Positions 7,995-32,074 of a stretch of 64,000 nucleotides of DNA are shown here, one piece after another; positions within the stretch are counted from its first letter, which is position 1; every line of letters begins with the position of its first letter. The notes beneath the pieces were generated by a model, which saw only the letters and a program-made list of their open reading frames with translations, was not told the DNA's origin and searched no databases. Source of the stretch: an uncultured delta proteobacterium (lineage in GTDB: Bacteria > Desulfobacterota > Binatia > Binatales > Binataceae); assembly GCA_963724765.1 (NCBI GenBank), contig CAVRVY010000002.1, forward strand, positions 32,001-96,000, read 5' to 3'. A program made the translations under genes and the position numbers.

Positions 7995-9209
7995 TGTCGT
8001 CCGCAAAAACTCGACGACCCTCATGCAGCGCGAGCCAGGAGGCTGTACTCGTGATGAAGTCCGTTCAGGACGGGGTGCGCCACAACTCGGCTTGATCGGT
8101 CGAAACGATGTCTCTGGTGTTGCAAACGCACGCGGAAATTTAGGGGCGGATCGGGCAGGCCGGGCCCCAAAGAAGAGTGCGGTCGGCCTCGATTGTAGTG
8201 CGGTAGCCAAGACCGTAGAGCTTTTCGAAGATGCTCCTCGGTCAAGGGGATAATCCAATCCAGACACTCACGCCGGAGTGTCCCGATTAGTCTTTCGCAG
8301 AGCGAATTCGCCTGCGGGCTGCGTATGGGTGTTTGGATGACCTCAACGCCCGTGCGCGCTACCGAAGCATCGAATCCGGGGGAGAAGATCGCGTCGTGGT
8401 CATGAAGGATAAACCGGTATGTGTGGTCTGACGGAATTGCTTCACGCAGCTGTTGAAGGGTCCAGGCTGCGGTTGGATGGGCAGTCGCGTTGATGTGAAT
8501 AATTCGGCGTGAGGCATGTTCCATGACCACGAGCACGTAGAGAATTCGAAAAGTGGCGCTCGCTACGACGCAGAAGTCACAGGCGATGATGGCCTCGGCG
8601 TGATTCTTAAGAAAGGTTGACCAACGCTGATCGCGGCGAGGGTTGCCGGGCGGTGCGGCCGGCAACTTTGGCAGATACTTCCGGATCGTGCGCGGCGACA
8701 CGCGCAGGCCGAGTTTCAGCGACAACTCGTTCGCAATTCGTTCCTCGCCCCACGAGGGGTTCGCACGAGCCATCTTGCGGATCAGGCGTTGGAGCTCCGG
8801 CGGAATCCGCGGCCGGCCAGATTGGCATTTCCGACGCCAGAAAAGCTGGAAGCCCTTGCGGTGCCAACCGATGAAAGTTTTGGGTCTCACGACGGTCAAT
8901 GCGCTTTGCCAATTGAACCAGCGGCTGAGCCACAGGAGGGTCAAGCGTGTTGGATAAGAGATCCGGCGAGGCCTGATTCTGCGTTCCTTGTAGAACGCGA
9001 GCTGTTTTGCGCAGCAAGAGATTCTCGGCCGCGAGCGAGCTTTTAGATCGTAAAGTGATGATCAAAAAGCGGAACAAGTCGGCAAAGAGGTTCAGCCAAA
9101 GCAGGCAGGATCTCATCATGGACCGATGGTCCCTATTTTCGGTCTTCTCCTTCAAATTGGTAGCAACTTAGCGCATTTCCAGTCAGGCCGGTAGTTTTTG
9201 CGGAGCACA
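7995..9209 (-). mobile_element. insertion sequence, 1215 bp, TGT...ACA ends (IS481/IS3-like integrase-core type)
   Basis: Terminal inverted repeats tgtcgtccgcaaaaact (7995) and revcomp tgtgctccgcaaaaact (ending 9209); no target-site duplication. Confidence 0.85.
8021..9119 (-). pseudogene. integrase-core (rve) transposase with a frameshift near 9005-9008
   Basis: DDE-type motifs ACDF, HDHD, QANSLCERLIGTLRRECLD, HYNRGRPHSSL; one extra A in cgc aaa A cag separates the N-terminus (LAAENLLLRK) from QLAFYKER. Confidence 0.8.
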
Positions 9210-9335
9210 GGTCTCGGTTTGACCAGCATGGAGGAGCGCGTCCGCATGGTGAACGGCAAATTTGCCATCCAGTCTCGGCCTGGAAGCGGGACCCTGGTCG
9301 AAGTTTATGTGCCCCTGGATGGGAACGTCGCATGA
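9210..9335 (+). pseudogene. NarX/UhpB-type sensor histidine kinase, last 41 aa
   Basis: GLGLTSMEERVRMVNGKFAIQSRPGSGTLVEVYVPL; ATGA overlap with the response regulator; begins at the IS end. Confidence 0.85.
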
Positions 9336-9970
9336 AGCATTCGAGGATACTGCTGGCGGACGATCACGCCGTCGTGGTCGAAGGTTTGCGCAGAATCCTT
9401 GACCGTCCGGAATTCGAAGTGGTGGACGTTGCCGGCGACGGCTGGAGCCTGGTGCAGGCCGCCGCCCGCTTGCACCCCGATGTAATCGTCACCGACATCG
9501 CCATGCCGGGCCTGAACGGAATCGAGGCCGCCCGCAAAATTCACGAACAAGACCAGAAGCCGAAAATCATCTTTCTCACCATGCATCCCGAATCGGTATA
9601 CGCCACGGCGGCCCTTGCGGCCGGGGCCTCCGGCTATGTGCTGAAGAGCGCAGCCGGTGAGGAACTGATCGCTGCCATTCGCGACGCGCTCGAAGGGCGA
9701 ATCTATATTTCGAAACTGGTCGCGCAGTCGAAGGGGCACGTTCGTGAGGTTGCGGGCAAAGCGGGCGGCGCAATCGATGGGCTGACGAGCCGACAACGCG
9801 AAGTGCTCCAATTGCTGGCCAAAGGACTCCAGGCGAAGGAAATCGCCGCCACGCTGAACGTGTCGTCCAAGACCGTGGAGTTTCACAAGTACCGGATCAT
9901 GAACGCGCTCGGTCTGCGCACGGTCGCCGACCTGACCCGCTACGCGATCAAGAACGGAATCGTGGAATAA
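9332..9970 (+). CDS. NarL/FixJ-family response regulator (REC + LuxR HTH)
   Basis: LLADDH, DIAMPGLNG, LTSRQREVLQLLAKG...KTVEFHK. Confidence 0.95.
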   Translation: MKHSRILLADDHAVVVEGLRRILDRPEFEVVDVAGDGWSLVQAAARLHPDVIVTDIAMPGLNGIEAARKIHEQDQKPKIIFLTMHPESVYATAALAAGASGYVLKSAAGEELIAAIRDALEGRIYISKLVAQSKGHVREVAGKAGGAIDGLTSRQREVLQLLAKGLQAKEIAATLNVSSKTVEFHKYRIMNALGLRTVADLTRYAIKNGIVE

Positions 9971-10401: not shown

Positions 10402-10845
10402 GTGGCGAAGTTCTTCAGGAAGATATTGTGTCCGATCGATTTTGATCGCAACTCGCTCGCGGCGCTTGATTACGCGCGCGATCTCGCCAAGCAGCAGGAT
10501 GCCACCCTCCACGTCTTGCACGTGGTATTTATCCCGATGGTCAGTCCGGGTTTTCCCGGCGAACCATATCCGGTGGTTTCCGAAGAACCGAGCAAGCTCG
10601 AACTGCAGGAAATCGCGCGCGAGCATCTGGACGGCAAGGTGCGATACCAAATCGAGACCCGCAGCGGCAGACCGGCGGAAATCATCAACCAGGCGGCGGA
10701 AGACCTCGGCGTCGATCTGATTGTCATGGCCACGCACGGCAGAACGGGTGTCACACGTCTGGTTCTCGGAAGCGTGGCCGAGCACCTAGTCCGCGGCGCG
10801 CGCCGGCCGGTGCTCACAATTCGGCCGCAAGAGGGTTCGGCGTAG
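10402..10845 (+). CDS. universal stress protein
   Basis: KILCPIDF...DLIVMATHGRTG...LGSVAE. Confidence 0.95.
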   Translation: MAKFFRKILCPIDFDRNSLAALDYARDLAKQQDATLHVLHVVFIPMVSPGFPGEPYPVVSEEPSKLELQEIAREHLDGKVRYQIETRSGRPAEIINQAAEDLGVDLIVMATHGRTGVTRLVLGSVAEHLVRGARRPVLTIRPQEGSA

Positions 10846-11001: not shown

Positions 11002-11346
11002 ATGCATGAGTTGGCGCTCGCCCGTGACCTGCTGGCCGCGATCGAACGAAAGCTCGATCGCGGCGACGCGCGGGTTGTGCGTGTCAGGGTGAGCGTCGGG
11101 GCGGCGGCCGGAGTCGTGCCGGAATCGTTGCGTTTCGCATTCCGTGCCGTCTGCGAGTGCACGCGCGTGGACGGCGCCGACCTCTCTATCGCCACGATCG
11201 CCGCTCGCAGCCGCTGCGCCGATTGTGGCATAGTTTTCGAGTTCGACGGTTTGATCGGCCGATGTCCCGGATGCGGACGGCTCGGCGGCGAGTTCCTGTC
11301 CGGCGACGACGTGATCCTGCGGGCAATCGAGGTGACCGATGTGTGA
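11002..11346 (+). CDS. hypA: hydrogenase nickel metallochaperone
   Basis: MHE start, CADC and CPGC motifs. Confidence 0.95.
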   Translation: MHELALARDLLAAIERKLDRGDARVVRVRVSVGAAAGVVPESLRFAFRAVCECTRVDGADLSIATIAARSRCADCGIVFEFDGLIGRCPGCGRLGGEFLSGDDVILRAIEVTDV

Positions 11347-12043
11347 CACTTGCGGCTGTGGCGAGCCTGCCGTGCGGACCATCGATGTCAACGAGCGTCT
11401 GGTCGCATCGAGTGCGGCGCAGGCGGAACACAACCGCGCCCATCTCTCGCAACGCGCGATCCTTGCGGTCAACCTTATGGGCACGCCGGGCGCGGGAAAG
11501 ACCGCGCTGCTCGAGGCGGCGATCGCGAAATGGCGCGGCTCCCGGCGCATCGTGGTGATCGAGGGCGACCAGGCGACCGACCGCGACAGCGCGCGCATCC
11601 GTGCCGCCGGTGCGATCGCCCGCCAGGTGGAGACCGGTCTCGGCTGCCATCTCGATGCGCATCAGATCCACGACGCGCTGCATCATCTCGATCTCCGCGA
11701 CGGCGACCTGCTCTTCATCGAAAACGTGGGTAATCTGGTGTGCCCCGCGCTCTTCGATCTCGGCGAGCGGCTGCGCGTGGTGGTGACCAGTCCCGCCGAA
11801 GGCGCCGACAAGCCGCTCAAATATCCGCCGATGTTTCGCGCCGCGCATCTCGTGGTGCTGAACAAGTGCGATTTGCTTGCGCACGTGCCATTCGACCTCG
11901 ATGAATGGACCGGATACGTCCGTGCGATCAATCCGCACGCGCGGATTCTCAGGACCGCGGCGCTCCACGGAGAGGGTATCGGCGAATTGCTGATCGAAAT
12001 CGACAATGTGCGACAGTCGGTTTCCGCGGGCATTTCCGCATGA
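11339..12043 (+). CDS. hypB: hydrogenase nickel incorporation GTPase
   Basis: MCDTCGC, GTPGAGKT, GCHLDA, ENVGNLVCP, NKCD. Confidence 0.95.
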   Translation: MCDTCGCGEPAVRTIDVNERLVASSAAQAEHNRAHLSQRAILAVNLMGTPGAGKTALLEAAIAKWRGSRRIVVIEGDQATDRDSARIRAAGAIARQVETGLGCHLDAHQIHDALHHLDLRDGDLLFIENVGNLVCPALFDLGERLRVVVTSPAEGADKPLKYPPMFRAAHLVVLNKCDLLAHVPFDLDEWTGYVRAINPHARILRTAALHGEGIGELLIEIDNVRQSVSAGISA

Positions 12044-13146
12044 GTGAATCGCTGCACCTGCCCAAGTCCGCGCTCGAGGATCTGATCGCGATTCTGTGGC
12101 GCGAAGGCTTCCGGGTCCTCGGTCCGGTCGCGCGCGACGGCGCGGTCGGATTCGACGAGGTGCGCAAAGTGTCGGACCTGGCAGTCGCGATGCGCGAGAC
12201 GCAGGAGCCCGGGCGCTACCGCCTCGACCAGGGCGCGGCCGAAGAAATTTTCGGAGTGGTGAACGGTGCCGGTTCGCTCAAGCCGTTTTTCTTCGCGCCC
12301 GAAGAAACGCTGCTTACCTTGAATCGCGAGCGCCGCGGTTTCAAGGTCAGCGAAGTGACTCCGGCGGCCCCGCGTCTGGCATTCATCGGCGTGCGCGCGT
12401 GCGACCTCGCCGCGCTGGCCATGCAGGATCGCATTTTTCTCCACGACCGCTTTCACGACACGCACTACCAGGCGCGGCGCAAGGACGCCCTTCTGGTCGC
12501 CGTCAACTGCACCCGTTCCGCGGCGACCTGCTTTTGCGCCTCGATGAAGACCGGCCCGGAGGCCAAAAAGGGGTTCGATCTTTCCCTGACCGAGCTGGAA
12601 CAAGGCTTCGTGATGCGAATCGGCTCGGCCGCCGGCGAAACCATCGCCGCGAAGCTCGGCTTAAGTCCCGCGCCGGACGATGAGGTCGCGACGGCAAAAT
12701 CCCGGATCGACGGATGCGCCGCCGGCATGCGTCGCAGCCTGGACACCGCGGACCTGCCCCGCCTGCTCTACGACGAAGCCGAGAACCCGCGCTGGAAGGA
12801 AGTCGCCGCGCGATGCCTTTCGTGCACGAACTGCACGATGGTTTGTCCGACCTGCTTTTGCCACACCGTCGTCGATCAGGAAGAGATAGACGGCAACATG
12901 ACCCAGCGAGTGCGCAAGTGGGACTCGTGCTTTTCGCTCGAGCACGCGCATATCCACGGAATCAATTTCCGTCCGAAGATCGAGAACCGCTACCGCCAAT
13001 GGCTCACCCACAAGCTGGCTTCCTGGATCGATCAGTTCGGCGCCTCGGGATGCGTGGGATGCGGTCGGTGCATCACCTGGTGCCCGGTGGGTATCGATCT
13101 GACCGAGGAAGTCGCGGCCATCCGCGCCCATCCGGTGAAGCGATGA
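12040..13146 (+). CDS. group 3b [NiFe]-hydrogenase (sulfhydrogenase) beta subunit, 4Fe-4S
   Basis: [40 protein letters not shown]; ATG overlaps the hypB stop. Confidence 0.9.
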
Positions 13147-13970
13147 CTCCCTACATGCTATATCCGGCGCGCATTACCGGGCGCCGCACGGAGACCGCGG
13201 GCATCCACACGTTCACCATGCGCTTCGTCGACCGTGAAGTGCGCAGTGCGTACCGCTTCAGGGCGGGGCAGTTCAACATGCTCTATACCTTCGGCGTGGG
13301 CGAGGTCCCGATTTCGATCGTTTCCGATCCCGACGATCCGGAAAACCTCGAACACACGATCCGGATTGCCGGGCGCGTCACCGGCGTGATGGGCGGATGG
13401 AAAGTCGGCGACGTGGTGGGAGTGCGCGGCCCGTACGGCAACGGATGGCCGGTCGAAGAGGCGCGCGGCCGCGATATCGTGATCATCACCGGCGGCCTGG
13501 GCTGTGCCCCGGTCGTCGGGCTCATCAACTACATCTTCCGCCGCCGCGACCAATACGGCGAGTTGCATATTCTGCACGGCGTGAAGACGCCGCACGATCT
13601 TCTGTACCGCGAGCGCTTCGACGAGTGGCGCCGCGCTCCGCGCACCAAGGTCTACCTCACGGCGGACCAGCCCGACAAAAGCTGGCATTACAAAATCGGC
13701 GTGGTGACGGAGCTTTTCGACGAACTCACCGTGCCTCCGTCATCGATGGTGATGATGTGCGGCCCGGAAGTGATGATGCGGTACGCGGCTCATTCGCTGC
13801 GCGACAAGGGCATCGGCGACGAAGCGATCTATCTTTCGATGGAACGGCGGATGGAGTGCGCGGTCGGGCTTTGCGGCCATTGCCAGTACCGCGAGCATTT
13901 CGTGTGCAAGGACGGGCCCATATTTTCCTTTCGCACGGTCCGCGAACTGTTCGGGATATCGAACATATGA
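13143..13970 (+). CDS. group 3b hydrogenase gamma subunit (FAD/NAD(P)-binding, 2Fe-2S)
   Basis: [43 protein letters not shown]...VCKDGP. Confidence 0.9.
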
Positions 13971-14743
13971 AAGCTCGCGTCGCAGTATTCAAGTTCGCCT
14001 CGTGCGACGGCTGCCAGTTGCAGTTCCTCAACGCCGAGGACGAGTTGTTGAAGCTCGCGGGCCAGGTGGATTTCGTTTATTTCCCCGAAGCGCGAAGCCG
14101 CATGCTCGAAGGCCCGTACGACATCGCCTTCGTCGAGGGCAGCATCACGACTCCAGACGACGCGCGCCGCATTGTCAGGGTGCGCGAGGAAAGCCGCTAT
14201 CTGGTGACCATCGGCGCCTGTGCGGCGGCGGGCGGAATCCAGGCGCTGCGCAATTGGGCCGATGTCGAGGCCTACAAACGCGTCGTCTACCCGAGCCCCG
14301 AGTTCATCTCGACGCTTTCGACTTCCACTCCTGTTTCCGAGCACGTTCGCGTCGACTTCGAACTGTGGGGCTGTCCCGTCGACAAGCATCAGCTGCTCGG
14401 CGTGGTGCGCTCGCTGTTGTCCGGGGCGCAGCCGACGGTGCCGGGGCACAGCGTGTGCATGGAGTGCAAGCGGCGCGGCAACGTATGTGTGGTGGTGGCG
14501 CGTGGTGAGCCGTGTTTGGGTCCCGTGACGCGCGCCGGATGCGGAGCGCTGTGCCCCGCGTTCAATCGCGGATGCTATGGATGCTTCGGGCCGGCCGACG
14601 ATCAGAACATGGAATCGTTCGCGCGATTGCTGGCCGGCCTGGGGATTACGGGCGACGACGCCGTGCGGCGTCTGCGCGGAATAAACGGTTACGTGCGGCC
14701 CTGGCGGGAGACCGCGGATGCCATCGCGGCGGGCAAAAAGTAG
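13967..14743 (+). CDS. group 3b hydrogenase small (delta) subunit
   Basis: FKFASCDGC, VEGSI, GACA, WGCP, VCMECK, CLGPVTRAGCGALCP, CYGCFG. Confidence 0.9.
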   Translation: MKARVAVFKFASCDGCQLQFLNAEDELLKLAGQVDFVYFPEARSRMLEGPYDIAFVEGSITTPDDARRIVRVREESRYLVTIGACAAAGGIQALRNWADVEAYKRVVYPSPEFISTLSTSTPVSEHVRVDFELWGCPVDKHQLLGVVRSLLSGAQPTVPGHSVCMECKRRGNVCVVVARGEPCLGPVTRAGCGALCPAFNRGCYGCFGPADDQNMESFARLLAGLGITGDDAVRRLRGINGYVRPWRETADAIAAGKK

Positions 14744-16022
14744 AACCATCCAGATCAACTACCTGGCCCGCGCCGAGGGCGAGGGCGCCCTGCGCATCCA
14801 CCTGCGCGACGGCGAGTTGGTCGATCTGCGTCTCGAAATTTTCGAGGCGCCCCGGTTCTTCGAATCCTTTTTGCGCGGACGCGACTCGCGCGAGGCGCCG
14901 GACCTCACCGCGCGCATCTGCGGCATCTGCCCGGTCGCATATCAGATGAGCACGGTCCACGCTTTCGAGCGCCTGTACGGCATCGCGATCGATCCGGCCG
15001 TCCGCGAACTGCGCCGCCTCTATCTCTGCGGCGAATGGATCGAAAGCCACGCCCTGCACATTCATATGCTGGCGGCGCCGGACTTCCTCGGATGCGACAG
15101 CATCATCACGCTGGCCGACAAGGATCGCGCGGCGGTCGAGCGCGGCCTGAGAATCAAGAAAGCCGGCAACGCAATTATTGCGATGCTCGGCGGCCGATCG
15201 GTGCATCCGGTGGGCGCGTGTATCGGCGGCTTCACCCGAACCCCCGGGCGCGATCGGCTCGCCGATCTGCGCGAGCAGCTTCTCGGCGTTCGCGCCGACG
15301 CGGTCGAATGCGTGCGATGGGTTTCGCACTTCGACTTGCCCGCCGTTACCCGCGATATCGAATTCGTCTCCCTGCGGCATCCGCGTGAATATCCGATGAA
15401 CGAGGGGCGGATAACCTCCAGCAAGGGCATCGACGCGACGCCCGACGACTTCGACGATTTCTTCGAAGAGCATCAGGTGCCGTACTCGAACGCGCTGCAC
15501 TGCAAGGTCAAAGGCCGCGGGCCCTATTTCCTCGGGCCGCTTGCGCGCGTGAACCTGAATTTCGACCGGATGGGCCCGGAAGTAACCTCAGTCGCGCGCG
15601 AGACCGGAATCGCCTGGCCCAATTCAAACCCCTACACGAGCATCGTCGCCCGCGCCCTTGAAGTTTTGTACGCGATCGACGAGGCGGTCAGAGTGATCGA
15701 CGCTTACCAACCGCCGCCGGCGCCGGCCGCGTCGTTCCAACCGCGTTCCGGTGTCGGCCGCGCGATTACCGAGGCGCCGCGCGGCTCGCTGTACCACGCG
15801 TTCGAGACCGACCATCGCGGTCTCATACACTCTGCGCGAATCGTGCCGCCGACGTCGCAAAACCAGGCGCGAATCGAAACCGACCTGCGCGAGATGGTTC
15901 CGGACATCGTTCAGCGCAGCCAGGCCGAGGCCACGCACATGTGCGAAATGGCGATTCGCAACTACGATCCGTGCATTTCGTGTTCGACGCACTTTTTGAA
16001 GCTCGAGATCGAACGGCATTGA
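14718..16022 (+). CDS. group 3b [NiFe]-hydrogenase large (alpha) subunit
   Basis: L1 motif RICGICPVAY, EAPRG, L2 motif DPCISCSTH followed by a short C-terminal tail. Confidence 0.95.
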   Translation: MPSRRAKSRTIQINYLARAEGEGALRIHLRDGELVDLRLEIFEAPRFFESFLRGRDSREAPDLTARICGICPVAYQMSTVHAFERLYGIAIDPAVRELRRLYLCGEWIESHALHIHMLAAPDFLGCDSIITLADKDRAAVERGLRIKKAGNAIIAMLGGRSVHPVGACIGGFTRTPGRDRLADLREQLLGVRADAVECVRWVSHFDLPAVTRDIEFVSLRHPREYPMNEGRITSSKGIDATPDDFDDFFEEHQVPYSNALHCKVKGRGPYFLGPLARVNLNFDRMGPEVTSVARETGIAWPNSNPYTSIVARALEVLYAIDEAVRVIDAYQPPPAPAASFQPRSGVGRAITEAPRGSLYHAFETDHRGLIHSARIVPPTSQNQARIETDLREMVPDIVQRSQAEATHMCEMAIRNYDPCISCSTHFLKLEIERH

Positions 16023-18793
16023 TCCGCATTATCGGAATCGGCAGTCCCTTCGGCGATGACGCCGCGGGGTTGGAGGCCGCGCGAATGTTAGCCGCCGCGC
16101 CTGCGCCGAATTGCGAGGTCCTCGCGGCCGATCGCCCGGGTGCGGAGCTGGTGGATTTGTTGGAAGGCGCCGCCGCCGTGATTCTAATCGACGCGGTGCG
16201 CTCGGGAGCGCCGCCCGGGACGATCCATGAATTCCGGTTCGATGAACTGGACCGCTGCCCGACGGGCTTCGTGTCTTCGCACGATTTGGGCGTCGCCGCG
16301 GCAGTTCAGCTCGCGCGAAAGCTGGGGCGCGCGCCCGCGTCGGGCAGAATAATCGGAATTGAAATCGCATCAGGGAGCACGGCGCAGTTCGGCGGGCTGA
16401 GCGCCGGAACGCGCGAAGCGGTGTGCAGGGCGGTCGAGCGGGTGCGGTCGGCGGCCGTGGAATTCGACGATCGGGGACGCGAGTGCCTGATGATCGCCGG
16501 GACGGTTCAGGGCGTCGGTTTGCGGCCGTTTGTGTGGCGGCTTGCGAAATCACTGCGGCTCACCGGTTTCGTGCGTAACGTCCCCTCCGGAGTCGAGATC
16601 GAAATCGAAGGCGGCCGCGTTCATCTGCGCGAGTTTCGCTGCCGCCTGCAGGCGGAGCTTCCCTGCGCGGCCAGCATCGAAAGCATCGAGGCCGAGCCGC
16701 TGCCGCTGCGCGGCGACACGGAGTTTTCCGCGATGCCGAGTGAGCGCGGACGCGCCGCCACGACTATTCCGCCTGACCTCGCCGCGTGCGCCGAGTGCGT
16801 GCGCGAGATTTTCGATCCCGCCGACCGCCGCTATCGTTATCCATTTACCAACTGCACTGCGTGCGGTCCGCGATTCACCGTGGTTCGCGCGCTGCCCTAC
16901 GATCGCCGGAACACTACGTTGCGCGGCTTTCCGCTGTGCGGCCAGTGCCTGCGCGAGTATGAGGATCCTTCGAATCGGCGCTTCAGGGCCGAACCGATCG
17001 CATGTTCCGAGTGCGGGCCCAAGGCGTGGCTCGAAGTGAGGACGCCGGGATGGAACGACGCGGGGGCCGGCGGCGATTGCGTTGCGCGCGCGGCGGCGAT
17101 TCTGCGGGCGGGCGGTGTGGTCGCCGTTCAGGGCATCGGCGGTGTCCATCTCGCGTGCGACGCCACCAGCGAAGCGGCTGTCGCCCGGCTGCGGGTTATC
17201 AAAAGGCGGGTGGACAAGCCGCTCGCCGTCATGGTCGATTCGATCGGCGCGGCGCGAAGTTTCGCGGAGGTCTCCGCTGAGCAAGGTGACCTCCTCACGG
17301 AGCCGCAAGCGCCGATCGTTTTGCTGCGCAAAGGCAAGGGCGCTCGCCTCGCGCGTGCGATCGCGCCGGGAAACGACCACGTCGGAGTAATGATCGCCTA
17401 CTCGCCGCTGCATCACTTGCTGGTGCGCGACGCGGCTCGCCCGCTCGTAATGACCAGCGCCAACCGGCCGGGCGAGCCGCTGGCTCGCAACGGCGATGAA
17501 GCGCGCGCGATATTCGGGGACCAGGTCGACGCGTTGCTGCTGCACGACCGGCCCATACATCAGCGTTGCGATGACGGCGTCTGGATCGCCGGGCCGCGCG
17601 GTCGGCAACCGATTCGACTAAGCCGCGGCGGCACGCCGCGCGTGCTCAGCGTGCCGGTCGCGGCCCCGGTTCCGATTCTCGGTATGGGCGGCGATATCAA
17701 GAACAGCTTCTGCCTCCTGTCCAACGGCGCCGCCATGATGAGCCAGTACATCGGAACGCTGGAGAGCGTGGCGACGCAGGATCACTTTCGCGATTCGCTG
17801 GAGAAATGGATCGCGATGAGCGGTGTCGCGTTGCGCGTCGCCGCTCACGATCTGCATCCGCAATCGATCGGCCGCGAAATTGCGGAGCGCCTCGAGGTGG
17901 AAACCATCGGCGTGCAGCATCATCACGCGCACGTCGCCGCGTGCATGGCGGAAAACGGCCACCGGCGCCCCGTGATTGGTATCGCCTTCGACGGGACCGG
18001 CTACGGCCCCGACGGTGCAATCTGGGGCGGCGAGGCGATGATCGCCGACTATCGGGACTTTCGCCGGGTCTCGCATCTCCAGTATCTGCCGCTTGCCGGA
18101 GGCGACGCCGCGGTTCGCCACCCCACGCGAATCGCCGCGGCATTCACGCTCGCGCTGTTCGGATCGAAGTTCGGCGATCGAGTATCGGGGCTGGTGGGCG
18201 AAGAAAATGCGCGCATTCTCGCGACGATGGTCGATCAGCGTATCAACACGGTCGAGACTTCCAGTTGTGGCCGGCTGTTCGACGCGGTGGCGGCGCTGCT
18301 CGGTGTGCGGGACGAAATCACCTACGAAGCGCAGGCCGCGATCGAACTGGAAGCGCTGGCCCGCAGCGCGATTTCGTCGAATCATCTCTATCCGTTTTCG
18401 ATGCGCGACGGGGCCGTCCAGACCGGAGATATCCTCGCCGCCGTCATCGACGATCTGGAAAGCAAAACGTCGAAAGTTAAGATAGCGCGGGCGTTTCACG
18501 ACACGATGGCGGAAGTCGCGGCGCGAATGGCGGTGGACGCGCGCGCAAGCAGCGGCATCGGGGTCGTGGCGCTCAGCGGCGGATGTTTTCAAAACCGTCT
18601 GCTGCAAGCGGCGGCGATCCGGCGCATCGAGCGAGAAGGTTTCAGCGTCCTGGTTCATCGCCGGGTGCCGGCCAATGATGGCGGATTGGCCTTAGGGCAA
18701 GCGGTGGTCGCGGCGGCGCGGCTCAACTCTGAATCTCCGGAGGTTCGTCATGTGTCTTGGGGTGCCCGGCAGGATAATCACGATCGTCGATGA
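16019..18793 (+). CDS. hypF: fusion: hydrogenase maturation protease + carbamoyltransferase HypF
   Basis: TTG start overlapping the large-subunit stop. Protease motifs IIGIGSPFGDDAAG, LIDAV, SSHDLG run in frame into GTVQGVGLRPFV, CAEC, NCTACGPRF, QHHHAH, DGTGYG, PANDGG. Confidence 0.9.
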   Translation: MIRIIGIGSPFGDDAAGLEAARMLAAAPAPNCEVLAADRPGAELVDLLEGAAAVILIDAVRSGAPPGTIHEFRFDELDRCPTGFVSSHDLGVAAAVQLARKLGRAPASGRIIGIEIASGSTAQFGGLSAGTREAVCRAVERVRSAAVEFDDRGRECLMIAGTVQGVGLRPFVWRLAKSLRLTGFVRNVPSGVEIEIEGGRVHLREFRCRLQAELPCAASIESIEAEPLPLRGDTEFSAMPSERGRAATTIPPDLAACAECVREIFDPADRRYRYPFTNCTACGPRFTVVRALPYDRRNTTLRGFPLCGQCLREYEDPSNRRFRAEPIACSECGPKAWLEVRTPGWNDAGAGGDCVARAAAILRAGGVVAVQGIGGVHLACDATSEAAVARLRVIKRRVDKPLAVMVDSIGAARSFAEVSAEQGDLLTEPQAPIVLLRKGKGARLARAIAPGNDHVGVMIAYSPLHHLLVRDAARPLVMTSANRPGEPLARNGDEARAIFGDQVDALLLHDRPIHQRCDDGVWIAGPRGRQPIRLSRGGTPRVLSVPVAAPVPILGMGGDIKNSFCLLSNGAAMMSQYIGTLESVATQDHFRDSLEKWIAMSGVALRVAAHDLHPQSIGREIAERLEVETIGVQHHHAHVAACMAENGHRRPVIGIAFDGTGYGPDGAIWGGEAMIADYRDFRRVSHLQYLPLAGGDAAVRHPTRIAAAFTLALFGSKFGDRVSGLVGEENARILATMVDQRINTVETSSCGRLFDAVAALLGVRDEITYEAQAAIELEALARSAISSNHLYPFSMRDGAVQTGDILAAVIDDLESKTSKVKIARAFHDTMAEVAARMAVDARASSGIGVVALSGGCFQNRLLQAAAIRRIEREGFSVLVHRRVPANDGGLALGQAVVAAARLNSESPEVRHVSWGARQDNHDRR

Positions 18794-18998
18794 GCAGGGC
18801 CTGCGGATGGGCGAAATCGATTTCGGCGGCGTCACACGCAAGGTGTGCCTCGCCTATGTGCCGGAGGCAATCGTCGGCGATTACGCGATCGTGCACGCGG
18901 GTTTCGCGATCGGCAAGGTGGATGAAGAAGAAGCGGAGCGAACGCTCGAGCTGGTCGGCGAAATCGAAAGGCATCTCGCAGAGGAAGAGGAGCCATGA
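18750..18998 (+). CDS. hypC: hydrogenase chaperone
   Basis: MCLGVPG, VHAGFAI. Confidence 0.95.
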
Positions 18999-20107
18999 AA
19001 TTCCTCGACGAATTTCGCGACGCGTCCGTAGCCCATGGCCTGATCGAGCGGATTCGCCGAACCGTCACGCGGCCCTGGACTATCATGGAAGTCTGCGGCG
19101 GACAGACCCATACCATCGTTCGCTACGGACTCGATGAATTGCTGCCGCGCGAGGTGACGCTGGTTCACGGTCCCGGATGCCCCGTGTGCGTGACGCCGAT
19201 CGAGATGATCGATCTGGCGATCGAGCTATCGGGACGCCCGGGCCTTACGCTGTGTTCGTTCGGCGACATGCTCCGTGTGCCCGGCTCCTCGTGTGACCTG
19301 TTCGACGCGCGTGCGGCCGGCGCCGATGTGCGGGTGGTCTATTCGCCGCTCGATGCGCTGGATCTGGCCCGCCGCGAACCCGCGCGCGAGGTGGTGTTCT
19401 TTGCGGTGGGATTCGAAACGACCGCGCCGACCACTGCGATGGCCGTTCGTCAGGCCGCGCGTCTCGGAATCGCCAAGTTTTCGGTCATCGCCGCGCACGT
19501 GCGCGTTCCGCCCGCCATCGAGGCGATACTTTCCTCCAGCGACAATCGAGTGCAGGGATTTTTGGCGGCGGGCCACGTATGCACGGTCATGGGTGTCGAC
19601 GAGTACCGGCCGCTGGTCGAGAAGTTCAAAGTGCCGATAGTCGTCACCGGCTTCGAGCCGGTGGACCTGCTGCAAGGCGTGGCGATGTGTGTGGCGCAGC
19701 TCGAAGAGGGCCGCGCCGAGGTTGAAAATCAATACGCGCGAGCGGTGCGCAACGAGGGCAACGTCACCGCGCGCGATCTGATGGCGGAAGTGTTCACCTT
19801 CGTCGATCGGCGATGGCGCGGCTTCGATACCCTGTCGAAAAGCGCGCTGGCCCTGAGCGATCGTTACGCGGCTTACGATGCGATTCGGCGGTTTGGCCTG
19901 ACGCGGGCGCCCGCGAACGAGCCCGTGGAATGTCGCGCCGGCCAGGTGTTGCGCGGTCTGCTCAAACCCACGCAATGCCCGGCCTTTGGAAGCTCATGCA
20001 CGCCGGATCATCCGCTCGGCGCTCCGATGGTTTCCGCGGAAGGCGCCTGCGCCGCATATTTTCGTGCCGGCCGGCTCGCCGCGGCGGCGGAGACGGAGGC
20101 GAAATGA
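18995..20107 (+). CDS. hypD: hydrogenase formation protein
   Basis: [32 protein letters not shown]. Confidence 0.95.
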
Positions 20108-21171
20108 GCGCTTCGGATCGCAACGGCTCTCCGGCTTCGCTCAGTTGTCCCGTGCCGGCGCGCAAGGGCGAAGTCATCGTACTTGGTCACGGAAGCGGCG
20201 GGCGGCTGACGGCCGAATTGATAGGCAAAGTGTTTCTGCCCGCGCTGGCCAATCCAGTTCTCAGTCGCCTCAACAACAGCGCCGAGATAAAGGTGGGCGC
20301 GAGCCGGGTCGCGTTCACTACCGATTCGTTCGTGGTGAATCCGCTCCGCTTTCCGGGCGGCGATATCGGATCGCTCGCGGTCAACGGCACGGTCAACGAT
20401 CTGGCGGTGGCGGGCGCTCAGCCGATCGGATTGTCGGCCGCGTTTATCCTCGAAGAAGGCTTTCCGATCGCGGAACTCGCGGCGATCGTCCGATCGATGC
20501 GTGCGGCGGCCGACCGCGCCGGCGTCGCGGTGATCGCGGCGGACACGAAAGTCGTCGAACACGGCAACGCGGACGGCCTCTTCATCACGACCAGCGGCGT
20601 GGGCGTGGTGGCAGGCGGGGTCGAGCTCGGGCCCGAGCGAATCCAGGCCGGCGACGCGGTGCTGGTCAGCGGCCCGATTGGCGATCACGGAATCGCCGTG
20701 ATGTCGGCCCGCGAGGGGCTTGAATTCCAAACCACGATCGTCAGCGATAGCGCCCCGCTGAGCGGCCTCGTTCTCCCGATGCTGGAAAGCGGCGGGGCGA
20801 TTCGATGCATGCGCGATCCCACGCGCGGCGGCGTTGCCACGGTGGTCAACGAGCTGGCGAAAAGCTCCGGCGTCGAAATAGTCATCGAGGAGACCGCGGT
20901 GCCGGTGCGCGACGGCGTCCGCGCGGCATGCGAAATCCTCGGCCTCGATCCATTGTACTTCGCATGCGAGGGCAGGCTGGTCGCGATCGTCGACCAGGCG
21001 GATGCGGACCAAATGCTTGAGGCGATGCGCCGCCATCCGCTCGGCAGCGGCTCCTGTCGAATCGGCGCCGTTACCCGAAGCGGCGCGCCGCGCGTGCTGC
21101 TGCGAACGGCCTTCGGAACCATCCGTCTGCTCGACGTGCTCGCCGGCGCGCAACTCCCGCGCATCTGCTGA
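20104..21171 (+). CDS. hypE: hydrogenase carbamoyl dehydratase
   Basis: HGSGG, DPTRGG, C-terminal LPRIC. Confidence 0.95.
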
Positions 21172-31750: not shown

Positions 31751-32074
31751 ATGGAAATCGGCGAAATTCTTCCGGAAGAACTGAGCGAGCGGCTCAAGCG
31801 GGGCGAGCGGCCTTTGATTCTTGACGTGCGCGAGCCCGAGGAGATCGCGATCGCGCCATTTCCCGGCGCCACGCATATTCCGATGGGCGAGATTCCTTCC
31901 CGCGTGACCGAACTCGACCCCGACCAGGAGACGGTCGTGGTATGCCATCATGGAGTCCGCAGCGCACAGGTCGCGATGTACCTGGCGCGGCTCGGTTTCG
32001 AGCGCGTGTCGAATCTGAGCGGCGGAATCGATCTGTGGTCGGCGACGGTCGACCCTGCGGTGCCGCGTTACTGA
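31751..32074 (+). CDS. rhodanese domain protein
   Basis: LDVREP, CHHGVRS, LSGGIDLW. Confidence 0.9.
   Translation: MEIGEILPEELSERLKRGERPLILDVREPEEIAIAPFPGATHIPMGEIPSRVTELDPDQETVVVCHHGVRSAQVAMYLARLGFERVSNLSGGIDLWSATVDPAVPRY

Follow-up and report, generated by a model that had tools for sequence, protein, structure and literature searches.

The hydrogenase maturation protein HypF (TIGR00143) is known from solved structures of Caldanaerobacter subterraneus (3vth and 3vti), Thermococcus kodakarensis (4g9i) and Escherichia coli (3tsp and 3tsq), and the maturation endopeptidases of the HycI/HybD/HoxW class (PF01750, TIGR00072) from those of HybD (1cfz) and HycI (2e85 and 2i8l) of E. coli and of a T. 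kodakarensis enzyme (5ija). The present analysis concerns a gene in which the two are joined. It lies at 16019–18793 on the forward strand of a 64,000-nucleotide stretch (hereafter the window; positions 32,001–96,000 of contig CAVRVY010000002.1, assembly GCA_963724765.1) from an uncultured bacterium of the family Binataceae, and specifies a protein with an endopeptidase domain in front of a complete HypF. This is probably a genuine bifunctional maturation protein, in which the protease gene behind a [NiFe] hydrogenase large-subunit gene has become fused to hypF and both halves keep their ordinary jobs.

Set beside the described HypFs, the fused body has the same four domains in the same order, is 38% identical to 3vth, adjoins hypCDE, and keeps the key residues of the acylphosphatase (ACP), zinc-finger, YrdC and Kae1 domains; it differs in carrying a 147-residue N-terminal protease domain, in belonging to an isolated clade, and in having five conserved residues replaced. 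The endopeptidase domain resembles its free counterparts in its hidden Markov model (HMM) matches, ligand positions and fold, and in that its gene directly follows the large-subunit gene and overlaps its stop. However, it is not a free protein of 150–165 amino acids (aa), and its C-terminal helix instead continues into the HypF of a 924-aa protein. Both halves are textbook proteins, and their chemistry is not new.

One reading frame from endopeptidase to HypF

The listing of open reading frames (ORFs) and its translation give a single uninterrupted frame of 924 codons, encoding 924 residues. The start at 16019 was chosen over a longer frame from a GTG at 15941 because homologues of the protein begin at the identical MIRIIGIG. 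It is a TTG codon, and shares the sequence TTGA with the TGA stop of the large-subunit gene upstream, an overlap that is the same in three closely related loci and takes the form ATGA in more distant ones. Residues 1–147 make up a HycI/HybD-type [NiFe] maturation endopeptidase and the complete HypF comes next, with no linker: the last protease helix (129–149) passes into the first strand of the ACP domain (152–162), with two residues between them and no stop. The residues after the helix, DDRGRECLMIAGTVQGVG, are those of a native HypF N-terminus, and the free HypF of the same genome opens with NRRARVRIRLDGIVQGVG. The parts of the gene are as follows.

16019–18793, forward strand: fusion gene, 924 aa, HycI-type endopeptidase domain plus full HypF (ORF, Pfam, NCBIfam, AlphaFold2 model, fold comparison)
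16019–16459, forward strand: endopeptidase domain, residues 1–147, with putative metal ligands D13/D14, D58 and H88 (HMMs, alignment, HybD fold match)
16460–16489, forward strand: junction, residues 148–157, end of the protease helix into the HypF N-terminus (alignment, model, two bridging contigs)
16490–16729, forward strand: HypF acylphosphatase domain, residues 158–237, R169 and N187 kept (Pfam, alignment)
16787–17038, forward strand: two HypF zinc fingers, residues ~257–340, eight Cys invariant; RRFRAEP, with R323 for the canonical His (Pfam, alignment)
17099–17584, forward strand: YrdC-like domain, residues 361–522, K400, S480 and N482 kept; Q371 for the canonical Lys (Pfam, alignment)
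17669–18700, forward strand: Kae1-like domain, residues 551–894, H634, H638, D658 and D887 kept; Y577 and T580 for the canonical His and Asp (Pfam, alignment)

At the 3' end, the stop of the fusion gene lies 44 nucleotides (nt) inside hypC (overlap 18750–18793). The last 22 residues (903–924) are poorly conserved, with 17% mean identity, and are missing in most relatives, whose proteins are 904–905 aa long; the tail looks like a recent read-on across the hypC start.

Profile searches identify both halves. Pfam HycI (PF01750) matches residues 27–142 with 44 bits (cut-off 23), and along the HypF part the Acylphosphatase (158–237), two zf-HYPF, Sua5/YrdC (361–522), HypF_C (551–645) and HypF_C_2 (654–894) models all score above their cut-offs. 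The NCBIfam model hydrog_prot (TIGR00072) covers residues 4–144 with 94.5 bits (cut-off 47.45), and the hypF equivalog (TIGR00143) residues 158–898 with 753 bits (cut-off 466); the protease domain stays below the cut-off of the narrower HyaD/HybD subfamily model TIGR00140 (44.5 bits against 151.8). The original prediction, that a protease and HypF are encoded in frame by one ORF, is borne out by the intact frame and by the domains that Pfam and NCBIfam find in it, with neither stop nor linker between them.

The protease motifs GDDAAG, IDAV and SSHD are present and align with TDEAIG, ADAI and SPHQ of HybD (1cfz), although the sequence match between the domain and HybD is weak (E 4e-5). The metal ligands of HybD are Glu/Asp16, Asp62 and His93, and D13, D14, D58 and H88 of the fusion are invariant across 59 aligned fused proteins. 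An AlphaFold2 model of the fusion, made with 59 fused homologues in the alignment, has a mean predicted local distance difference test score (pLDDT) of 85 and a predicted template modelling score (pTM) of 0.76. Its HypF body superposes on 3vth_A with a target-normalised template modelling score (TM) of 0.94 (E 9e-83, root-mean-square deviation (rmsd) 2.3 over 756 columns), and its N-terminal domain on HybD (1cfz_A) with a target-normalised TM of 0.78 (E 9.8e-8, rmsd 2.7 over 153 columns). A complex prediction between the protease domain (1–150) and the HypF body (157–924), with a 59-row alignment for each, gave a score of 0.00, which speaks neither for nor against an interface between them.

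It could be asked whether the halves are separated during or after synthesis, by internal initiation or proteolysis, so that the fusion would merely co-translate two ordinary proteins. The window sequence has a methionine (Met158) at the HypF start with GGGGA 12 nt upstream (found by eye), and the gene overlaps of the operon point to translational coupling. But Met158 is not kept in relatives, which have L, I or V instead, so there is no conserved internal start in the fusion gene; nor is there a linker or disordered segment to cut, the pLDDT across the junction being 83–88 in the model, or a site resembling DPCxxCxxH at the junction. Separation is highly improbable on this evidence.

That a lost stop or a frameshift in assembly or sequencing joined two genes is, for practical purposes, refuted, and next to no weight is left to it. 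The artefact would find a parallel in a broken HypF copy at a contig end of the window's own assembly and in some related long-read assemblies with frameshifted copies (L011; P0106–P0111), but dozens of independently made assemblies, drawn from five collections, have the same fusion, as do nine reference genomes, and short-read contigs match it exactly over the junction. These contigs, from two public runs of two studies, bridge it at 16199–16663 (run X4) and 16410–16549 (run X1) with 0 differences and no indels; one of the two runs may be the sample of origin. No RNA run is among the 21 sequencing runs listed for this sequence. Reads across the junction had been proposed as a check, and both contigs are identical to the window there, without indel or stop. 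In the frameshifted long-read metagenome-assembled genomes (MAGs), P0106–P0111 and L011 (~9059–9074), the break comes shortly past the junction or within the HypF body, and the resulting ORFs of 186–257 aa, a protease plus part of an acylphosphatase, resemble free proteases in database searches.

Carriers of the fusion and its unfused relatives

A homologue search confined to long proteins, and scored over residues 1–200, returned 104 matches, of which 67 (P0002–P0067 and P0069) have HycI and HypF domains and are 55–94% identical to the window protein over those residues; a few of the 67 are truncated. Their sources are NCBI, ENA, JGI, Logan and a fifth collection, and those that bear a name are called 'carbamoyltransferase HypF [Candidatus Binataceae bacterium]' or 'hydrogenase maturation protein HypF'. 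In three named MAG contigs (L011–L013) the whole operon is repeated gene for gene, and the C-terminal tail of the large subunit is also kept. The architecture had been put forward as one not known to be described. In the literature this stands, since searches judged by listings and abstracts gave no description of a HycI–HypF fusion, only engineered tags or fusions and general papers, and neither 'HypF' nor 'maturation' occurs in the main text of the paper on Binatota genomes (PMC8262859); in public databases it does not, as the architecture is present there many times as plain HypF. It is unremarked rather than unseen.

When 301 genomes of the window's class were scanned with the HycI profile, 12 had a match in a frame of at least 870 aa. 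Ten of the 12 are true fusions, all from the window's family, namely the window genome and nine of the 49 others sampled (10 of 50 in the family), and in the nine relatives they were confirmed by full-length matches of 60–80% identity. The frames in two genomes of another family (G176 and G188) were rejected, because HycI there closes a GC-rich frame that is free of stops. Among 15 frames of 580–760 aa with HycI, the two inspected (G171 and G018) are free proteases ending long stop-free GC-rich frames. One unpublished genome in the scan (G208) adds a non-fused match only.

The unfused arrangement is seen in four operons, L014, L015 and L017 (protease 59–61% identical; Binatia-type MAGs by title) and L016 (41%), each with the same four hydrogenase subunits followed by a free protease gene, of 158 aa in L017. 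No hypF was found downstream of the free protease within 8 kb in three of these loci and about 1.7 kb in L014. Three of the four genomes have one canonical HypF elsewhere, 41–45% identical to the fused body, and none was found in the fourth (G302). Two separate ORFs in relatives had been named as an observation that would speak against the fusion, and some relatives do encode the protease separately; these loci nevertheless represent the unfused state and not a split fusion gene, because hypF is not the next gene and any HypF found is canonical and located elsewhere. Free proteases 53–72% identical to the fused domain are common in the class, several of the closest 'free' matches being truncated or frameshifted fused genes.

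A different joining of the same domain was met in P0068 and its cluster, where a 532-aa ORF links a HycI domain 64% identical to that of the window to a class I fructose-bisphosphate aldolase (PF00274). Three contigs, of 281 kb, 88 kb and 4.7 kb, contain the ORF intact, and an 80.7 kb contig has it split into ORFs of 201 and 329 aa. The two parts may be genuinely fused, or the ORF may be a read-through that recurs.

Among the nine relatives carrying the fusion, whose genomes are 93–97% complete, eight contain no HypF match (E ≤ 1e-10) and no HycI match other than the fused gene, and in the ninth there are two copies of the fused type. Five relatives were examined for hydrogenases, and each of them has a single [NiFe] large-subunit gene, which immediately precedes the fused gene. 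With a single HypF/HycI and a single hydrogenase in most carriers, one protein must therefore supply both functions, and both halves are very probably active because the sole copy of each lies directly behind the sole hydrogenase gene. Mean identity within the clade is 68% for the HycI domain, 66% for the acylphosphatase and 71% for the Kae1-like domain, the HypF domains spanning 66–80%, and the dN/dS of the protease domain is 0.23–0.38 (six pairs from four loci). Judged from these sequences, the fusion is conserved and under purifying selection.

The same data bear on whether the N-terminal domain could be a relic without catalytic activity or serve for docking alone, the tail being removed otherwise or not at all. 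Its Pfam score is below those of free proteases and its match to HybD is weak, as a decayed domain might show, but all three ligand positions are invariant, the domain is conserved as much as the ACP domain, its dN/dS is low enough to count against decay, and it is the only HycI-family sequence found in eight relatives. Moreover, the sole large subunit of the five relatives checked is encoded directly upstream, and a cleavable tail is kept in the window and in L011–L013. A dead domain is very unlikely.

The window's own genome (G000) holds further maturation genes. A second hydrogenase cluster on contig C4 (L009, 809–15142) consists of small and large subunits, NifU-Rieske, DUF5947 and DUF6084 genes, a 443-aa ORF, a free 162-aa HycI protease, hypC, two SIS-domain genes, hypD, hypE and a canonical 769-aa HypF. 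The organism has two full hyp sets, one per hydrogenase, since this cluster also has its own. At the end of contig C3 (L010, ~12995–15246, minus strand) lies another HypF of the fused-clade type, with the motifs RRFRAEP, QGLGGVHL, RLSRGSTP and SQYIGTL, which is 57–86% identical to the window protein, is scattered in pieces over three or more reading frames, and is followed by hypD and hypE. The contig end cuts it at the equivalent of residue 171, so that it may or may not have carried a protease domain, and this copy is either a pseudogene or an assembly error.

The fused HypF clade and its replaced residues

A FastTree phylogeny of the HypF body was built from 125 sequences (19 Binataceae-type fusions, three other fusions and 103 canonical HypFs), and all 19 Binataceae-type bodies fall on one side of a branch with a support of 98. 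Among 1.84 billion cluster representatives the clade is isolated, its own representative matching with 1270 bits and 65% identity and the next complete HypF outside it with 656 bits and 48%. The other HycI–HypF fusions, P0071 (965 aa), P0256 (928 aa) and P0094 (942 aa), are found elsewhere in the HypF tree. P0256 is GenBank MDI6839963.1, named 'carbamoyltransferase HypF', and has a fused relative, P0392, that is 44% identical; the N-terminal domain of P0094 is below the Pfam threshold. The protease–HypF fusion therefore arose at least two or three times. In a quick-search tree of the protease domain (175 rows, 159 columns), fused and free forms are interleaved, with a minimum of 18 changes, four of them forced by well-supported branches, but with so short an alignment this tree does not allow fusions or fissions to be counted, and some of its nearest 'free' rows are truncated or frameshifted fused genes; the HypF-body tree is the clearer of the two.

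Several usually conserved HypF positions had been predicted to be altered, and in an alignment of the 103 canonical and 19 fused-clade HypFs (122 in total) this proved to be a property of the whole clade, involving five residues that are each at least 91% conserved in the canonical set.

Residue 323, His of RRFHAQP: H in 100 of 103 canonical, R in 17 of 19 fused-clade HypFs
Residue 371, Lys of KGIGGFHL: K in 98 of 103 canonical, Q in 16 of 19 fused-clade HypFs
Residue 534, second Arg of RRxRGY: R in 99 of 103 canonical, L in 15 of 19 fused-clade HypFs
Residue 577, His of SQHIGDL: H in 94 of 103 canonical, Y in 16 of 19 fused-clade HypFs
Residue 580, Asp of SQHIGDL: D in 96 of 103 canonical, D in 0 of 19 fused-clade HypFs

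The window protein has R, Q, L, Y and T at these positions, each shared with 13–17 of the 19 members. The change at 534 sits in the linker between the YrdC and Kae1 domains (residues 523–550), just upstream of the Kae1-like segment, and an aromatic residue at 538 (89 of 103 canonical) is also lost in the clade. Not all of the differences first listed are equally telling: the changes at H323, K371, R534, H577 and D580 are unusual, but E for Q in RRFHAQP already occurs in 27 of the 103 canonical HypFs, and the Y of SQYIG in seven of them and in the solved T. kodakarensis HypF, so that these two substitutions are less so.

The residues of known importance are unaffected. R169, N187, S480, N482, H634, H638, D658 and D887 show no variation among the 122 HypFs, K400 (the YrdC lysine) is present in 19 of 19 fused-clade and 94 of 103 canonical sequences, and the eight zinc-finger cysteines (C257, C260, C279, C282, C307, C310, C329 and C332) are invariant in 59 fusions. 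The catalytic and ligand roles are presumed to belong to the Arg and Asn of the ACP domain, the eight cysteines, the Lys and Ser-x-Asn of YrdC, and the HxxxH and two Asp of the Kae1-like domain. P0071, P0094 and P0256 are mostly canonical at the altered positions, P0094 alone sharing the Lys-to-Gln change, and because these independent fusions keep the canonical motifs, the changes are not a consequence of fusing. Since their effects on charge cancel out overall (H to R, K to Q, R to L, D to T), the five non-catalytic replacements suggest a compensated remodelling of an internal contact, an interface or a tunnel.

Such changes could also mark a new interface, and this is one of the points in favour of a scaffold, the tethered complex of the original prediction, in which the protease domain would bind the unprocessed large subunit and hold HypF, HypE and HypCD at their client, so that the first and last steps of maturation take place on one assembly. 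With no linker at the junction, the protease and ACP domains are bound to lie next to each other, fusions have arisen more than once, with P0071, P0256/P0392 and P0094 outside the Binataceae clade, and in one report (PMC5299533) proteases of this family form stable complexes with the large subunit. Repeated fusion is, however, equally expected from operon adjacency alone, and the canonical motifs of the other fused lineages indicate that fusion needs no residue changes. In the same report the two-hybrid interaction between protease and substrate required hypF, that is, a loaded cofactor, and the protease would therefore engage late, after HypF has done its job; a late, separate protease step fits this dependence better than an early scaffold does. 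A scaffold of this kind is considered unlikely. Its most elaborate form, one physical scaffold in which the protease domain is a client-recognition module docking HypF, HypE and HypCD on the nascent large subunit, and in which the five replacements are a rebuilt inter-domain tunnel or gate coupling CN-ligand synthesis to the presence of the client, is distinctly improbable.

The hydrogenase operon and the fusion's place in maturation

The fusion is part of a complete and self-sufficient group-3b-like module, in the order hypAB, hydrogenase beta, gamma, delta and alpha subunits, fusion and hypCDE. The neighbouring genes are listed below.

11002–11346, forward strand: hypA-like, 114 aa, with CxxC...CPGC pairs (named by eye from the translation)
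11339–12043, forward strand: hypB, Ni-insertion GTPase (Pfam cobW; TIGR00073 hypB, 236 bits against a cut-off of 121)
11905–13146, forward strand: hydrogenase beta subunit, Fer4_22, HydB/ShyB-like; longest ORF, true start probably ~12040 (best NCBIfam matches sulfhyd_HydB/ShyB, below the equivalog cut-off; relatives align from residue 46)
12714–13970, forward strand: hydrogenase gamma subunit, FAD/NAD(P)-binding and 2Fe-2S; longest ORF, true start probably ~13140 (family matches from about residue 144)
13397–14743, forward strand: hydrogenase small (delta) subunit; longest ORF, true start probably ~13950 (Oxidored_q6 at 203–339; best match sulfhyd_HydD at 190–432)
14718–16022, forward strand: [NiFe] large (alpha) subunit, 434 aa, with RICGIC and DPCISCSTH; presumed protease substrate (Pfam, NCBIfam, motifs)
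18750–18998, forward strand: hypC, 82 aa, starting MCLG (NCBIfam)
18995–20107, forward strand: hypD (Pfam HypD, 496 bits)
19813–21171, forward strand: hypE; longest ORF, true start probably ~20100 (Pfam; C-terminal PRIC)

Upstream of hypA, and named by eye from their translations only, are ORFs resembling a LuxR-type response regulator (9332–9970, 212 aa) and a universal stress protein (10402–10845, 147 aa).

The hydrogenase is like the group 3b sulfhydrogenase of Pyrococcus furiosus (HydBGDA/ShyBCDA) in having four subunits, in their beta-gamma-delta-alpha order and in its best-matching families, the top NCBIfam match of each subunit being the corresponding sulfhydrogenase subunit. It is unlike that enzyme in that all four subunits score far below the equivalog cut-offs (228 bits for the alpha subunit, against cut-offs of 700–880), and because of these scores it would be placed as a distant, group-3b-like bacterial relative of the sulfhydrogenases.

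In a bifunctional protein the HypF body would most likely turn carbamoyl phosphate into thiocarbamate on the C-terminal cysteine of HypE, the source of the CN ligands; HypE, encoded two genes downstream, ends in the canonical PRIC. The N-terminal domain would most likely clip the tail off the group-3b-like large subunit encoded upstream, after nickel insertion. In that subunit DPCISCSTH is followed by the nine-residue C-terminal tail FLKLEIERH, and tails of this sort are what maturation proteases remove from large subunits. The persistence of both activities can be inferred from genome content, motif conservation and fold, and there is no sign that the tether itself adds a mechanistic step. 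As to origin, the gene order large subunit–protease–hypF in a lineage with one hydrogenase and one hyp set would best account for the fusion, as joining comes at no cost there. The fusion would be affordable with one hydrogenase and one dedicated hyp set, because the hydrogenase-specific protease and the general HypF are then required at the same time and in comparably low quantities. Such proteases tolerate an appendage at the C-terminus, since engineered fusions of HydD/HyaD to the T18 domain kept their hypF-dependent interaction with the large subunit (PMC5299533).

Four observations count against two working halves with ordinary jobs. The HycI score of the fused domain is 44 bits, against 60–115 bits for many free proteases of the class. 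Five residues at least 91% conserved in canonical HypFs are replaced in the fused clade, and unchanged HypF chemistry is for that reason assumed rather than shown. The completeness of the relatives' genomes means that 'only copy' has to be read as 'only copy found'. Finally, another contig of the window's own genome has the canonical HypF and free protease beside the second hydrogenase, and because of these the fusion is not strictly required for either function in that organism. A genuine bifunctional maturation protein is still regarded as the probable explanation.

For the lineage itself, genomes look as if they were without a maturation protease for their only hydrogenase because pipelines label the fusion as plain HypF. 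As one polypeptide that holds a hydrogenase-specific finisher and a general first-step enzyme, and is the only copy of each, the protein suits a test of whether maturation proceeds in a complex or as a free succession of enzymes. Were the scaffold with its rebuilt gate to prove real, nature would for the first time provide evidence that the endopeptidase belongs to the assembly complex from the start and is not a late, free-standing finisher. By genomic necessity, the fused HypF clade would work without five residues kept by nearly all other HypFs, and it may thus show which 'invariant' residues are dispensable or replaceable. The arrangement hypAB-hyhBGSL-(hycI~hypF)-hypCDE also offers a compact, complete set for the heterologous expression of a soil-bacterial NAD(P)-linked hydrogenase.

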